A stretch of DNA of 64,000 nucleotides from Lachnospiraceae bacterium (GCA_030524635.1 JAUNGG010000004.1:50077-114076); one strand, 5' to 3'. Shown: positions 31,427 to 37,950, numbered from the stretch's first letter. Numbers and translations are program-made. The notes: a model not told the origin generated them from the sequence alone.

Positions 31427-32575
31427 TCAGGCTCTTGTTTCTGCACCGCCTGCTTTCGCCCCTTCAAAGGCCCCTCCGGGAACTCCGGTCAGCTCTGCAA
31501 GCTGCTCCAGAACACCCTTTCCGCCATTTAGGGAAATATTTCCCACCTTGTCGCAGATGCGCTCTAAGTATTCCAGCTCCTTCAGCTTAAACAAGGTCTG
31601 GTTTTCCTCCATCAGCCGCGCTGTGTTTAAAAGGCTTCTGGTAGACGCCACCTCCTCCCGGCGCATGATCACATTGGCCTGCGCCTTCTTCTCGGCAATC
31701 AAAACGGTGTTCATAATATCCCGGATCTCGCCCGGCAGAATGATATCCTTGATACCGCCGTTCATCACCTCCACGCACAGCTCCTGCTGCCGCTCCCGGA
31801 TCTTTTCCAGGATATACCGGCCGATCTCCTCCTTCTGCGCCAGCAGCTCATCCAGCCGGTACCGGCCTACATACTCCCGGATGATCAGCTGGGCACAGGT
31901 ATAGAGCTGGGCAGATGCACCCTCAATCTTCTTCACCAGCTCCTCCGGCTGGGTGATCCGATAGTTGCAGATCACATTCAGCCGCACGCCTACCTTGTCA
32001 GCAGTCAGCACCTCCTGACCGGAAATCTCAAGCTGCTGGATCTTTAAGTTGAAGATCTTGCAGGTAACCTCCCTGCCGTAATTCCAGAAATAGTAGGTCC
32101 CGCTCTCCAGCCGCCCCTCCATCCGGTTGTCGAAATACAGAAAACCCGCTTCACCGTCCTTGATGGTGATCTTCTTATAGTACTTGGCCGGCATCAGATC
32201 CATATACATTCTGGGCAGCGTCTCCTCCATGTAAGGCTTGGTAATATCAATGACCTGAAATGTATTGGTCTCAAATACGTTCCAGAAATAGGTTTCCGCC
32301 ACTGTCAACACCTCCTTGAAGGCGCCGTTTACAAAGCGGATGGCAATGGAGGTGTCCGGCAGCTCCGCTTTTACCACACGAGATGCGAAATCCGGGCACT
32401 TCAGCAGCACCTCGATAGGAATTCCGTTGGTCTTGACCTGACCAGTCATCGGCACAGTCAGCACCTCATAGCCCAATTCCTTAAAATAGGTATATCGTCC
32501 GGCCAGCAAAAGCTTTTGGAACCGGCCGTTCTTTAACAGGAATCCACAATCCTGCTCCTTGATAATAATTCTCAT
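31427..32575 (-). CDS. SPFH (band 7 / stomatin-prohibitin)-domain protein without a TM segment
   Basis: 382 aa with an AAAAGGGGG RBS. The N-terminal ~130 aa show an internal duplicated motif (IIIKEQDCGFLLKNGR / ITIKDGEAGFLYFDNR), followed by an SPFH-like core. Confidence 0.5.
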   Translation of the reverse strand: MRIIIKEQDCGFLLKNGRFQKLLLAGRYTYFKELGYEVLTVPMTGQVKTNGIPIEVLLKCPDFASRVVKAELPDTSIAIRFVNGAFKEVLTVAETYFWNVFETNTFQVIDITKPYMEETLPRMYMDLMPAKYYKKITIKDGEAGFLYFDNRMEGRLESGTYYFWNYGREVTCKIFNLKIQQLEISGQEVLTADKVGVRLNVICNYRITQPEELVKKIEGASAQLYTCAQLIIREYVGRYRLDELLAQKEEIGRYILEKIRERQQELCVEVMNGGIKDIILPGEIRDIMNTVLIAEKKAQANVIMRREEVASTRSLLNTARLMEENQTLFKLKELEYLERICDKVGNISLNGGKGVLEQLAELTGVPGGAFEGAKAGGAETRA

Positions 32576-32879
32576 GATAATTCCCCCTTTTTAACAATCT
32601 CATGTTCCCACTTATAACGATTCTGTACCGTTACCTCTCATTTGCAGAAAAGGTATCGCCCAGCTCTCATCCTAAGGATGGGGGCCGAACCTTAAGCTTC
32701 CCTGATCTCCTGCTTACAGCCACGCCACCCTCTGACCTTGGCATGTCTGATATTGAAGCTTCCGAAAAAGCGGTATCCAGTCCGGCTCAGGCCTCCTTAC
32801 GACTGCCCGAAGGCGGAGAGCTGAGTACTTCCCTTTTCATTGAGTTTGTCTTTGCATTGACGTGCAAACTTGACGATTG

Positions 32880-33000
32880 CTATACCCACTTAGCTACATG
32901 TCCTCACACATGGCAGGATTCGAACCTGCGACAAATCGTTAAATGTGGAATCAGACCCGGTATACCAAACGGCAGCGCCGCCGGCACCCCAAGGGCCGCA
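32880..33000 (-). ncRNA. tRNA-like non-coding element (D-arm-like plus canonical T-arm, no acceptor stem). Possible Y-RNA/YrlA-like RNA or tRNA remnant.
   Basis: The minus strand reads ...GCCGTTTGGTATACCGGG ... GTCGCAGGTTCGAATCCTGCC. This is a perfect tRNA T-arm with no complementary acceptor strands. It sits in a 540 nt ORF-free gap immediately downstream of rtcB. Confidence 0.3.
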
Positions 33001-33114
33001 TCTAAAAAGCATCCCTTAAGCTTAGGAGCCAAATTCCCTGTTTATCGTTTCTAAAATCATTTCATTCTGATTCGTTCTTTATTAATTGATTCGTTCGGAT
33101 GTTTTCCGGCATCA

Positions 33115-34395
33115 TCATCCCTTCACCACGCCTACCGTCTTCAGCCGTTTTACCGGCACTACCAGATCCGATTGATTCTTCATTACTTCCTCGATATCCT
33201 TGTAGGCGAACCGGCTCTCCTCTGCCACATCGGCCTTTCCCTTCTTTCCAAGTACCACGCCCTGGTCTGCCAGGTCACGGATCACCTGCTCACAGGAGAA
33301 GGCCTCCATGGCTCCCTTTCTGGAATACCGTCTTCCGGCTCCGTGGGAGGAGGAGCAAAAGCTTTCTGGATTTCCTTTTCCCATCACCACGTAGCTGTAG
33401 GAACCCATAGCGCCGGGAATCACCGCCAGCTCCCCATTTCCTGCATGGACAGCGCCCTTCCGGTGCACCCACACCTCCCTGCCGTGATGGGTTTCCAGTG
33501 CTGCATAATTATGATGACAATTCATGTCGTGGGAAAATTCCAGGTTTAACTGGGTATATTTTCCGATCCACTTTTCCATGACCGCCTTCACCACCAGCAT
33601 CATCTTCTCCCGGTTTTCTCTGGCAAAATCCATGGAAAGATTCATCCAATTCTGATACTGCTTTCCTTCCGCCGAATCCGCGGAAAGAAATGCCAGCCGG
33701 TACTCATCCGGAACCTGGCTGTACCATCTGCGGTTTAACTCTCTGGCCTTATTATGAAAGTAATCACACACCGTCTTTCCAAAATGACGGCTGCCGGAGT
33801 GAAGCATCACAGCCAGGTATCCCTGATCATCCACCTGAAGCTCGATAAAATGATTTCCGCCTCCCAGCGTTCCGATCTGGAAATATCCTGCCTCCAGCTG
33901 GCCTAACAGCTCTCCGTCCTCCTCATACCGCTCCATCTCATCAAAGGCCCGGTCTAAGGTATAGCAGGGCATCACAGTCTTGTGATGAGCAAAGCCTACC
34001 GGAATATTCCGCATGATATCTCCTATCATCGCCTGGATCAGCGTCCCATTGCCGGTCATTACCTCCTGGATCTCCTCCAGGCGAATATTGGTCTCCGTGT
34101 AGGCCATGCCGCAGCCGATATCCACTCCTACTGCATTGGGAATGATCACACCTTCTGTGGCGATCACACCGCCGATGGGCATTCCCATCCCGGCATGGGT
34201 ATCCGGCATCAGACAGACCGGGCCAGCTAAAAATGGAAGCTCTGAAAGGTGGTATGCCTGTTCCAGGCAGCTTCCCTCCAAATCCTTTTCATTCTGCAGC
34301 CAAACCTTGATTGGGACCTTCATTTTGTCCTTATCGTATAATACAAACATACCCTCACATCCTTTCCTCTTCATTTCGTATGTTTCACTCAACAT
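33115..34395 (-). CDS. rtcB: RNA-splicing ligase RtcB
   Basis: Hallmark motifs MPDTHAGMGMPIGG, GGNHFIE, HNYA, HRKGA and SHGAGR. The start is uncertain among M1, M8 and M16 (34350). Confidence 0.85.
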   Translation of the reverse strand: MLSETYEMKRKGCEGMFVLYDKDKMKVPIKVWLQNEKDLEGSCLEQAYHLSELPFLAGPVCLMPDTHAGMGMPIGGVIATEGVIIPNAVGVDIGCGMAYTETNIRLEEIQEVMTGNGTLIQAMIGDIMRNIPVGFAHHKTVMPCYTLDRAFDEMERYEEDGELLGQLEAGYFQIGTLGGGNHFIELQVDDQGYLAVMLHSGSRHFGKTVCDYFHNKARELNRRWYSQVPDEYRLAFLSADSAEGKQYQNWMNLSMDFARENREKMMLVVKAVMEKWIGKYTQLNLEFSHDMNCHHNYAALETHHGREVWVHRKGAVHAGNGELAVIPGAMGSYSYVVMGKGNPESFCSSSHGAGRRYSRKGAMEAFSCEQVIRDLADQGVVLGKKGKADVAEESRFAYKDIEEVMKNQSDLVVPVKRLKTVGVVKG

Positions 34396-34636
34396 CCTGC
34401 TTTCTGCTTCCTGCCTGCAGGCTCTGTTGTTTCCTTACGTCCATATCTTAACAAAACTGGGAACAGGAATCATTTTAAAAAAGTTGCGAACCTGCAAAAA
34501 CCAGAGAAAAGCTTTTCCCAATTTCCCAGCAATCAGAATTTATTTGACGAATGTTTTTTTAAAGATATAATAGGTATAAGGTTATCATCACAATCATACA
34601 CGTTGCCCCATTCACAGGAGGATCATCAAATACTCT

Positions 34637-36627
34637 ATGTCAGAATTTCAGGAATTAATCAAAAACTTCGACCGGATCCGGGATTATATGCGCCAATTCT
34701 TCGTCTACGGCTACAAAAGCCGCAGCGACTATGAAGGAAAAAGCGCCCGGACCTATGATAATGAGCGAAGGCGGATCGAAAGCTGGCTGTCCGGCTGCAT
34801 CCAGTCCGGCTACACCCAGAAGGAAAAGCATGTCTATATCAGTGTGGACAGCAAGACTATCCCGCAAAACCCGCTCTATGCCGCCTGGAAATCCAAAAGC
34901 TTTACGGATAATGACATCCTTCTCCACTTTTTCCTCCCGGATCTTTTGTGGGAACGTCCGGAAGGAATGACTTCCGGAGAATTATGCGATGCTATATCTG
35001 CAGAATATGGCATGGTATTTGACAGCCAGACGGTCCGGCTGAAGCTGAAGGAATATGAGCGCCTTGGATTTCTGGAATCCCAAAAGCAGGGAAAACGGCT
35101 GTGCTACCGGCTGCAGCCTGCGTCATTTGGACCAGCCTGGCAGAGCCTTCTCACTGCCGTCACCTACTTTCAGGAGGCTGCTCCCTTCGGCTTTATCGGC
35201 AGCACCATTTTGGATCATGAAAATCAGGAAAATCAGTGGTTTTCCTTTAAGCATCATTTTCTTGTACATACCCTGGAGGACGGTGTGCTGGCTGACGTTC
35301 TTGCCGCCATGAAGGAGCACCGCAGCATTGCCTTTGAAAATAAAAGCAGCCGCAGCGGAGCCACCACCAGCATGAGAGGGTTTCCCTTAAAGATCTTTGT
35401 CAGCACCCAGACCGGGCGGCGCTACCTCTGCCTGTATCTGGAGGAACGGCGGCGCTTTACCAATGTCCGCCTGGATGCCATGGCAAAGGTGACGCCCCTG
35501 GATGTCTGCAGCAGCTATGACCGCAGGCAGCAGCTTCTTTCAAAGAACCTGGCAGCCGATCAGACTGTCAGACCGCCGGTCAGCCAGCTGCCGGCGCCGC
35601 GCCCTCCCGGGAAAGCGCCTGCCTGCCGCCCCAGGAGCTGTTCGATAAAATATACGGCTGCTACTACCAGGCAGTGCGCCGGATTCTTTTGGAAGCAGCA
35701 GCGGAGCCTGTTTCTAAAAACCGGATTCGTGAGCTTTCCATGAAGTACGGCTACTTGGAAAGCTGCCTGACTATTGTGCCCAAGCTGACGGAAGGGGGCT
35801 GGCCCCTCCTGAAGGAGACCGATTCCCGTTACCGATCTGTGCTCCTCCACCCGGAGCTTCTTCTCCCTGGACACCTGCCCCTCACCCTGCTTCAGAAATC
35901 CTGGCTGAAAGCCCTCCTTTTTGACCGGCGGATCCGGCTTTTCATAACAGCAGAGCAGCTTGACCAGCTGAACTGCTGGCTTTCCGATACAGAGCCTTTA
36001 TACTGCCAGGAGGATTTTTACTACTTTGATCAGTATCTGGATGGTGATGATTATACTTCTTCCTCTTATCAGGATCACTTCCAGACCATTCTGCGGGGAC
36101 TGACGGAAAAAAGAGCTCTGATCCTTGTCTACGAAAACCGCCGGGGCCAGTGCAGCACGTTAGAAGCGGCTCCCTACCAGCTCCAGTATTCCTCTAAGGA
36201 TGACAAGTTCCGGCTATGCTGTCTGAAATATTCCAGACACGGCTTCAGCCAGAATACCATCCTTAACCTGAGCCGGATCAAGGCCTGCCATCTGTCCCAC
36301 CAAGCAGTTCCTGAGAATCTCCGGCACCAGGCCTTCCGTCCTATTCACCCCGCTTCCCAGCCTGTGGTCATCCGGATCAGCGGAGAACGAAATTCCCTGG
36401 AACGCTGTATGCTCCATTTCGCCAACTACGAAAAGCATACCCGATACGAGGAAGAGACTAAAACCTGGCTCTGCTCCATCTACTATGACCTGGCTGATGA
36501 GACGGAGCTGCTGATCGAGCTGCTGTCCTTCGGCCCGGTGATCCAGGTCTTAGGACCGGAAAGCTTCCTGTGCCAGATCCGCTGCCGGGTACAGAAGCAG
36601 CATGAATTATTTTACAGGGCGGTGTGA
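34637..36627 (+). pseudogene. Tandem WYL-domain regulator (wHTH-WYL ... wHTH-WYL-WCX), apparently disrupted by a frameshift near 35520-35620
   Basis: Two overlapping ORFs (34637..35743, frame 2; 35674..36627, frame 1). Protein-like sequence continues across the junction only with a frame switch. The first half has a GRRYLCLY WYL-like motif. The second half has FRLCCLKY ... and a C-terminal LLIELLSFGPVIQVLGPESF WCX-like tail. Confidence 0.5.
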
Positions 36628-37685: not shown

Positions 37686-37720
37686 AATCACTGCTTGTCA
37701 AGGACAAGCGCCAATGATAT

Positions 37721-37802
37721 GGGTGGATTCCCGAGTGGCCAAAGGGGACAGACTGTAAATCTGCTGCGATTCGCTTCGGTGGTTCGAATCCACCTCCGCC
37801 CA
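37721..37802 (+). tRNA. tRNA-Tyr(GUA)
   Basis: Anticodon loop ACTGTAAAT, long variable arm, acceptor GGGTGGA/TCCGCCC with one G-U pair, T-arm GGTTCGAATCC. Confidence 0.85.
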
Positions 37803-37864
37803 TTTCCTTCATCGGATTTTTCGTGAAGGAGTTGCATGAAAAGCGAAAGCTTTTATGCAGGCCA

Positions 37865-37950
37865 GCCGGCGTGGCGGAACTGGCAGACGCACAGGACTTA
37901 AAATCCTGCGGGACTTACCTCCCGTACCGGTTCGATTCCGGTCGCCGGCA
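37865..37950 (+). tRNA. tRNA-Leu(UAA)
   Basis: Acceptor GCCGGCG/CGCCGGC, anticodon stem-loop CAGGA-CTTAAAA-TCCTG, long variable arm, T-arm GGTTCGATTCC. Confidence 0.85.

Follow-up and report, generated by a model that had tools for sequence, protein, structure and literature searches.

A conserved RtcB locus with a Y-like RNA, a Band-7 protein gene and paired WYL regulators in a Lachnospiraceae bacterium

To our knowledge, bacterial RtcB has no clear natural substrate or targeting mechanism, and Ro60 together with Y RNA are the only cofactors that have been studied. Here we describe a locus from a 64,000-nucleotide (nt) stretch of DNA of a Lachnospiraceae bacterium (GCA_030524635.1 JAUNGG010000004.1:50077-114076; the whole stretch is called the window below). 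In this locus rtcB, the gene of a 3'-phosphate/5'-OH RNA ligase, is followed on the minus strand by a gap containing a structured RNA and then by a Band-7 protein gene, and two WYL-domain regulator genes face away from it on the plus strand. We consider it probable that the extended region, counted from 31427, is one conserved RNA-repair module made up of the WYL pair, rtcB, a Y-like RNA of ~390 nt and the Band-7 protein. The existence, conservation and linkage of these parts are well supported.

The closest described systems are those of the Y RNAs. YrlA is a Y RNA with a tRNA-like domain and is encoded near rsr (Chen et al., 2014, PMC4201824). In Salmonella it forms a stable RNA to which Rsr binds (PMC4201824; 10.1101/312249). 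The structure of the tRNA-like domain has been solved (Wang et al., 2018, 10.1101/312249), and modules of the YrlA type have no anticodon loop (10.1101/312249). Burroughs and Aravind (2016), as quoted in 10.1101/312249, predicted systems of RtcB and Band-7 with a "b7a-tRNA", and noted, according to the same quotation, that YrlA is occasionally found beside Band-7. A paper of 2026 places an SPFH gene within the rtc locus of Pseudomonas aeruginosa. For regulation, RtcR is switched on by tRNA fragments (PMC7790460), and WYL domains sense ligands, which are predicted to derive from nucleic acids (PMC4012209).

The present locus is a member of the predicted class of RtcB/Band-7/tRNA-like-RNA systems, and its arrangement is not new in kind. 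As in the b7a-tRNA system (Burroughs and Aravind, 2016, in the quoted form), RtcB stands beside Band-7 with a predicted tRNA-like RNA between them. The b7a-tRNA is, however, said in that quotation to strongly resemble authentic tRNA, whereas the window RNA is permuted and is called neither by ARAGORN nor by the tRNA model. Judged by its sequence, the window module is of the permuted YrlA type, i.e., the case of YrlA next to Band-7. The YrlA/Rsr system of Salmonella Typhimurium (rsr-yrlBA-rtcBA) resembles it in the order of T-arm, closed hairpin and D-arm, held in a stem, and in the position of the RNA inside the rtcB operon, directly upstream of the gene for a ring- or cage-forming protein (for the window protein a ring or cage is a prediction); moreover, sister loci with the module carry Rsr. 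Differently from YrlA/Rsr, the window has a soluble Band-7 protein in place of rsr. Its RNA measures ~390 nt against ~100-120 nt, has extra conserved helices and a GGAUACC//UNAA loop, and leaves the Ro-binding stem unmatched; its WYL pair stands at a sigma-70-type promoter, in contrast to the sigma-54 activator RtcR. The papers searched describe neither the 390-nt architecture and its GGAUACC//UNAA rod nor the regular WYL pair nor the promoter box, although Burroughs and Aravind (2016) may describe some of them. Among the best-ranked 15 of 55 literature matches, WYL and RtcB are not combined in any title or abstract, and one paper has WYL and RtcR separately.

The tRNA-like module and the RNA around it

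The gap between rtcB and the next gene spans 539 nt (32576..33114). Its minus strand carries a tRNA-like module of the YrlA type at 32873..32939, identified by a local match to the Rfam YrlA model and by a covariance model, R1, built from 19 of the 24 genome-locus gaps described below. From 5' to 3' the module consists of a T-arm that is perfect for a tRNA (GCAGG-TTCGAAT-CCTGC, 32913..32929) and had been recognized in the preliminary description, a closed acceptor-like hairpin (CAUGUG-UGAG-GACAUG, 32897..32912), the dinucleotide UA and a D-arm (GCUA-AGUGGGUA-UAGC, 32879..32894), which is the permuted layout of YrlA; the hairpin and the D-arm were assigned from the Rfam YrlA alignment. The outer stem of the YrlA-aligned part is GAUU/AAUC, and the whole anticodon-like stem reads ACGAUU/AAUCGU. 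An acceptor stem had been reported as missing. An ordinary one is indeed missing, and the closed hairpin fills its position, as in YrlA. The module retains the T-loop and D-loop nucleotides that form the tRNA elbow.

In a permissive scan of 801 nt, YrlA (RF02553) was the sole meaningful match among Rfam families, with 38.7 bits (E=7.1e-7) at 32875..32937 on the minus strand, covering model positions 23-85 of 114; at gathering thresholds, no Rfam family was found in the gap. The flanks of the tRNA-like domain fall in other conserved helices, namely H3 and hairpin C, and not in a Ro-binding stem. R1 scores the window module at 89.8 bits. Across 101 distinct module sequences, 91.9% of the cells are paired, whereas shuffles give 66% and slid controls 31-46%, and 19 of the 20 base pairs show compensatory changes; this alignment leans towards structure because it was fitted to R1 and includes Rsr-type copies and apparently a few tRNA pairs. 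The module is beyond chance, given the Rfam E-value of 7e-7 and the conservation and covariation in more than 100 loci. The analogy with YrlA drawn in the preliminary description therefore holds, by way of the tRNA-like domain, and in other lineages the module also stands beside Rsr and RtcB. A second and more degenerate module (T-arm, hairpin, short D-arm) follows in tandem in L019 (5538..5589), L020 (5650..5698) and L021/L022, where it lies ~70 nt past the first; the carriers of tandem copies are Acetivibrio, Petroclostridium and Pelosinus, and the window has one module.

Could the element be a decayed tRNA fragment or a phage or integrase att site, or could the gap instead hold a real protein gene? 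The T-arm is perfect for a tRNA, and an open reading frame (ORF) of 150 residues (32602..33054, plus strand) overlaps the gap, antisense to the structured RNA, so that the gap is present as first described (~540 nt) yet is not free of ORFs. We give hardly any credence to these readings. ARAGORN calls no tRNA in the gap, neither in the window nor in the 24 related loci, the Rfam tRNA model reaches 15.8 bits against a threshold of 29, and the order of the arms is permuted. Compensatory changes keep the helices in more than 100 loci, which together with the synteny refutes such an origin. No integrase was found near the gap in the ORF listing and a Pfam search of the neighbouring proteins, and length differences among loci sit in the variable regions of the RNA without a reading-frame pattern. 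The antisense ORF is probably spurious and looks like a by-product of the composition of the RNA. The preliminary description had proposed a covariance-model scan and a test of conservation as checks: the former gave the local YrlA match, with the tRNA model below threshold and thus no decayed tRNA, and the latter gave helices that covary across the related loci.

Conservation extends over a structured non-coding RNA of ~390 nt (~33039 to ~32644, minus strand), as seen in alignments of 19-24 genome loci and in a helix scan, where an RNA of ~100-130 nt had been expected. Upstream of the module, helix H3 (32962..32987, minus strand) pairs GUGCC with GGUAU around the hairpin CGGC-GCU-GCCG and is followed by a conserved ACCGG. 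In the helix scan it is 99% paired, with four covarying pairs, and a perfect 5-bp helix is present in 25 of 27 distinct sequences, with the variants GCGCG/CGCGU, GUGCG/CGUAU and GUGCA/UGCAU. The segment CCG-TTTGGTATA-CGG (32957..32972) had been taken for the D-arm; its GGUAU is in fact the strand that pairs with the upstream GUGCC in H3, and the true D-arm is the one given above. A long-range pairing of GGUAU(A)CCGG with CUGGAUACC was also considered and dropped; the local H3 has compensatory changes (L001, L007, L017). The helix scan further supports a 5' hairpin, AAGGG..CCCUU. The four helices within the tRNA-like module are supported as well, and a hairpin 3' of the module and one more stem-loop come from manual reading of the alignment. 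The single-sequence minimum free energy fold of the gap was uninformative (z=0.42).

Downstream of the module lies a rod (32684..32786, minus strand), consisting of an outer helix, GCCGGACU/GGUUCGGC, and an inner helix, GCUUU/GAAGC, on either side of an invariant internal loop in which GGAUACC (32772..32778) faces UUAA (32692..32695); the consensus of the loop is GGAUACC//UNAA. The outer pairing joins the 8 nt 5' of GGAUACC to the 8 nt 3' of U-N-A-A, the inner pairing joins at least 5 nt 3' of GGAUACC to the nucleotides 5' of U-N-A-A, and a variable domain (32702..32764) is enclosed within. The rod was first suggested by RNAalifold on a condensed alignment. In most of 41 distinct sequences, a scan for complementarity alone converged on the site of the U-N-A-A and CC motifs, and in constructs from 34 distinct loci anchored by the motifs only, 87.8% of the cells are paired, compared with 56% in shuffles and 36-56% when slid. 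Double-change cells number 143, versus 43. Beyond a CCCC block, the 3' tail of the RNA (32644..32680, minus strand) has the conserved form GGAUGRAGC-NGGGC-N5-8-CUUUUC, which is not a standard terminator.

Linkage of the RNA to Band-7 and rtcB

The gene directly 3' of the gap (31427..32575, minus strand) encodes a soluble SPFH/Band-7 (slipin-like) protein of 382 residues (Pfam PF01145, E=4.8e-24). A scan of genomes with this protein gave 24 loci, from Lachnospiraceae, Enterocloster, Eisenbergiella, Clostridium, Pelosinus, Acetivibrio, Petroclostridium and Oscillospiraceae, and a tRNA-like module is present in every gap of these loci. Cultured carriers are Enterocloster citroniae DSM 19261 (L024), Eisenbergiella tayi DSM 26961 (L012), Pelosinus propionicus DSM 13327 (L021) and Clostridium symbiosum. 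In at least 15 of them (tblastn), WYL2 and WYL1 run leftward and rtcB, a gap of 440-710 nt and Band-7 run rightward. A second order, WYL1-WYL2-gap-Band7-RtcB, is found in L017, L020 and L023, with RtcB just 28-31% identical; L019 shares this order but lacks an RtcB match. On sequences outside its training, R1 gave 62 bits in L020, 56 bits in L019 and 22 bits in L017, and a partial T-arm in L018 and L023, all of these matches directly upstream of Band-7. Since the matches adjoin Band-7 even when rtcB lies downstream, the RNA tracks Band-7 and not the 3' end of rtcB.

A search based on Band-7 is biased to Band-7, and therefore metagenome contigs were scanned with a pattern for the RNA alone (T-loop, 15-45 nt, D-arm), which gave at least 120 loci. 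A distinct core with two to three tandem modules sets 18 of these apart. An Rsr protein with TROVE and vWA_Ro60 domains flanks each of the three that were checked, and RtcB also flanks L036, the only one checked for it. Among the other 102 loci listed, Band-7 lies downstream in 76 of the 86 that have at least 900 nt of downstream sequence, starting 260-600 nt past the T-loop, and is thus the best-linked partner of the RNA. The gene directly upstream is rtcB in 69 of the 85 listed non-Rsr loci, and WYL1 is present in 34 of the 40 listed loci with enough upstream sequence; the linkage of WYL genes to rtcB, which the preliminary description had wished to see in relatives, is thus found both here and in the genome loci. 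Several of the linkage exceptions look, by sequence alone, like tandem tRNA genes, as do the only three pattern matches in viral contigs.

Some loci depart from the common arrangement. Those of the Eisenbergiella type (L012, L071, L084, L101, L120) have rtcB, RNA and Band-7 with no WYL genes in the available upstream sequence, and may have a different regulator. In L092 (450..9259) the order is WYL1-WYL2-module-DUF2828/DUF7788-RtcB, the DUF2828/DUF7788 protein replacing Band-7 or Rsr; it looks like a third alternative partner. The soil metagenome loci L036 (2377..3335), L093 (1851..3600) and L032 contain dense clusters of tRNA-like RNA with two to three tandem YrlA-like modules, the cluster of L036, which lies between RtcB and Rsr, together with several tRNA genes and with matches to the Deinococcus Y RNA model below the gathering score.

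In the AlphaFold2 model of the Band-7 protein (predicted local distance difference test 80.8), residues 1-130 form beta-rich N-terminal domains, which are followed by an SPFH domain and a C-terminal helix of ~60 residues. The combination of SPFH domain and long helix is that of the cage-forming stomatin, HflK/C, prohibitin and major vault protein. No transmembrane helix is predicted in the protein (maximum 19-residue Kyte-Doolittle value 0.97), and whereas stomatin, HflK/C and flotillin are typically anchored in the membrane, the window protein has no predicted anchor and a beta-rich N-terminus. Its relatives in public data exceed 7,000, and the few that are named are called "slipin family protein". 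Neither the Band-7 protein nor the regulators have a specific model in NCBIfam, and no defence-system model of PADLOC matches Band-7 or RtcB.

The vault offers a comparison, as there an SPFH-fold, cage-forming protein, the major vault protein, goes with a small structured RNA, the vault RNA, and the window pairs a putatively cage-forming SPFH protein with a structured RNA. The alternation of TROVE and SPFH partners in bacteria likewise mirrors TEP1 (TROVE) and the major vault protein (SPFH-like shoulder). On the other hand, the window Band-7 is much smaller, at 382 residues, and its cage and RNA binding are predicted only. The resemblance may go no further than a shared architecture of SPFH domain plus helix.

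The ligase gene itself (33115..34395, minus strand) matches Pfam RtcB (PF01139) with 361.9 bits (E=7.4e-108) over profile positions 1-426 of 426, i.e., its full length. The motifs PDTH, DIGCG, GGGNHF, HSGSR, CHHN and SHGAGR, which we take to be the metal ligands and the GMP-accepting histidine of published RtcB structures, were all located in the window protein. Homologues in the related loci begin to align only at residue 9-16 (tblastn), and the start codon may be an internal one, at M8 or M16.

Why is there no Ro protein? No TROVE or vWA_Ro60 domain was found in the neighbouring genes or in 20 further ORFs of at least 330 residues across the window, as the preliminary description had stated for Ro60/Rsr, and the partner Band-7 protein would explain the absence. 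The compact, Ro-less unit of RtcB and RNA proposed there is Ro-less and does link the two; it is not bare, as the Band-7 gene that follows had been missed. Farther out, just past the WYL2 gene and a PHP-domain gene, the window has a tRNA-Tyr and a tRNA-Leu (37720..37950, plus strand). A tRNA-Tyr occupies the same position in L001, L002, L004 and L016 (near 500-800), with a tRNA-Leu also in L001; this is probably plain shared ancestry and not a tie to the module.

The position of the RNA immediately 5' of Band-7, on the same strand and wherever rtcB sits, would also be expected if it were a cis-acting leader of Band-7, such as a riboswitch, an attenuator or a processing signal, and not a free RNA acting in trans. 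The CCCC block could pair either with an upstream GGGG/GCGG or with the downstream GGGG/GCGG of the conserved tail, two options that would allow alternative structures, and the CUUUUC that follows the tail is conserved. Of 41 distinct loci, however, only 7 have a canonical hairpin with a U-run after the RNA and before Band-7, a scarcity of terminators that fits co-transcription. In sister loci the module sits upstream of rsr, and Salmonella YrlA is known as a stable RNA in complex with Rsr (PMC4201824; 10.1101/312249). Finally, ~390 nt and a full tRNA mimic far exceed the needs of an attenuator. We therefore regard a leader function as distinctly unlikely.

The WYL regulators and the promoter box

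Divergently from rtcB, as first described, the window has two paralogous WYL genes, WYL1 (34637..35743, plus strand) and WYL2 (35635..36627, plus strand). The Pfam WYL domain is found in both regulators, at 25.1 and 22.7 bits in full-length homologues against a cut-off of 21.8; the match is weak in the window proteins, where WYL1 reaches 22.0 bits. The WYL models of PADLOC give E=3e-7 and, for the WYL2 homologue, E=3.6e-11. The WYL2 frame is homologous from 35635 (tblastn), with a GTG at 35674 as the first possible start. The ORF from 35674 has no Pfam match; read from 35635, and in full-length homologues, it is a WYL protein, 68% identical to the WYL2 of L014 over residues 2-343 (tblastn). 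In most relatives the two regulators measure 421-429 (WYL1) and 329-348 (WYL2) residues, and in L001 and L016 they are fused into a single chain of 831 and 790 residues, respectively.

The window copy of WYL1 is truncated. It aligns just to residues 1-319 of 425, so that ~105 C-terminal residues (~300 nt) are gone (tblastn), its homology stops at ~35554, and what remains of the ORF, ~60 codons, is out-of-frame linker. WYL2 has lost its normal ATG start, and the segment 35550..35680 resembles a WYL1-WYL2 fusion whose proline-rich linker has suffered a deletion and a frameshift. No such lesion was found in the nine related loci whose regulator ORFs were checked, and the exact sequence of the truncated WYL1 product is not on record elsewhere.

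The operon promoter with its box lies at 34445..34491 on the minus strand, as judged from the conservation of the box and the -10 match. In the window the box reads GTTCGCAAC-TTTTTT-AAAATGAT (34491..34469), followed after a spacer of 18 nt by the -10 hexamer TAAGAT (34450..34445). Its general form is GTTCGCAAC-TTTTTT(T)-AAA(A)TGAT with 17-18 nt to a -10-like hexamer. It is unique in the window, where none is expected by chance, and 32 distinct, near-invariant versions occupy the equivalent place in related loci, reaching from just 5' of the -35 region of the operon into it. In the loci with the other gene order (L017, L019, L020, L023) a matching half-site, GTTGCAAAC or GTTCGCAGC and sometimes within an inverted repeat, recurs with the same spacing immediately 5' of the RNA. 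Whatever the first element of the operon is, the box thus lies at its start. The inverted repeat of some distant loci, e.g., GCTGCGAAC-N13-GTTCGCAGC, could also serve to end transcription of the regulators. Next to the operon promoter and divergent from it, a sigma-70-like promoter of the regulator genes, TTGACG-16-TATAAT (34544..34571, plus strand), is proposed from an 11/12 consensus match only. An Rfam scan of the rtcB-WYL intergenic region gave chance-level matches only.

PafBC is the WYL activator of the DNA-damage response in mycobacteria and other actinobacteria and senses single-stranded DNA. The window pair shares with it the organization as tandem paralogous WYL proteins, fused in some relatives, just as PafB and PafC are in some bacteria, and a box that reaches into the -35 region from its upstream side, where an activator would be expected to bind. 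The sequence similarity is marginal, however, the operon is one of RNA repair and not of DNA repair, and the N-terminal helix-turn-helix and the WCX domain are weakly detected (a winged-helix match to Penicillinase_R at E=0.05, and WCX in WYL2 at ~15 bits, below the cut-off of 23.9). Sequence matches of the regulators in the PDB are only very weak (E ~0.7), to chains 7p5x and 9fnd, "Transcriptional regulator-like protein", which we take to be PafBC bound to RNA polymerase.

Another use of the RNA is conceivable, as a decoy or bait for tRNA-cutting toxins; its cleaved or resealed form would be the WYL signal or the substrate of RtcB, with no role as a scaffold for the repair of other RNAs. This would suit the retained elbow nucleotides of the module, the ligands predicted for WYL domains (PMC4012209) and the activation of RtcR by tRNA fragments (PMC7790460). 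The module, however, has no anticodon loop, the usual target of anticodon nucleases, and at that place the plain stem ACGAUU/AAUCGU joins it to the scaffold; the strict linkage to Band-7 would be left unexplained. We hold a decoy to be unlikely.

A proposed Band-7-RNA particle and its bearing

We infer instead, by analogy with the systems above, a particle of Band-7 and RNA that aids RtcB under the control of a WYL switch. In this proposal the WYL pair would bind the GTTCGCAAC box and turn the operon on or off upon a signal of nucleic-acid damage, in analogy to PafBC with single-stranded DNA and to the CARF domain of RtcR with tRNA fragments. The operon transcript would be processed to a free RNA, as are YrlA and YrlB from rsr-yrlBA-rtcBA of Salmonella. 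The soluble SPFH protein would oligomerize to a ring or cage and bind the RNA, the best candidate binding site being the invariant GGAUACC//UNAA loop of the rod, and Band-7 would thereby take the part that Ro60 plays for Y RNA. The exposed tRNA-like module may recruit a tRNA-binding factor or RtcB itself, and the particle would help RtcB to reseal RNAs, most plausibly tRNAs, with 2',3'-cyclic-phosphate and 5'-OH ends.

Several points weigh against this proposal and against the wider reading of the region as a single RNA-repair module. The YrlA score of 38.7 bits lies below the gathering score of 69, and the Ro-binding stem (YrlA model positions 1-22 and 86-114) falls outside the local match. 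Modules linked to Rsr in soil metagenomes also score below it, at 37-51 bits, and align globally to the YrlA model (positions 1-114); the gathering score is thus strict, and failing it is not decisive. The ends of the RNA are approximate, being set solely by the limits of conservation, and it is from the same conservation that a stable, free RNA of ~390 nt is proposed. The closing of the junction by GGGG/CCCC, consistent with ~14 distinct sequences and inconsistent with 7, and a stem of the 5' and 3' termini find mixed support and are tentative; for the latter candidate, GGCUC-CUAAG / CUUAG-GAUGA-GAGCU, RNAduplex over-predicts and the register is inconsistent. The box is a predicted binding site of the WYL regulators by its position and co-occurrence, and the oligomerization and RNA binding of the SPFH protein are likewise predictions. 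WYL genes are absent upstream in 6 of the 40 listed loci that could be tested. Last, a WYL1 without its C-terminal domain and a WYL2 without a start mean either that the regulator is decaying or that the assembly is wrong, and with these lesions regulation may be defective in this organism.

More tentatively still, the locus may represent an undescribed class, in which a ~390-nt, Band-7-associated Y-like RNA, a YrlA-type tRNA mimic on a larger scaffold, would dock through the invariant GGAUACC//UNAA loop of that scaffold to a soluble, vault- or stomatin-like SPFH cage, forming a Ro-independent RtcB particle common in gut Firmicutes and switched by a PafBC-like WYL heterodimer through the GTTCGCAAC box. 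This is possible, although we lean somewhat against it in so complete a form.

We know of no experimental examination of Band-7 as an alternative to Ro60. The locus and its more than 100 relatives from gut and environment provide a concrete RNA, a soluble SPFH protein, a sharp promoter box and a candidate sensor pair with which to approach it. With these one can ask whether RNA is bound by SPFH cages, which factor the tRNA mimic recruits and whether WYL domains sense damage to RNA. If the proposal is true, WYL sensing would come to include RNA damage in addition to DNA damage and phage defence. The system also bears on the proposed bacterial roots of the vault, in which a small RNA is combined with a TROVE protein and an SPFH-like one.

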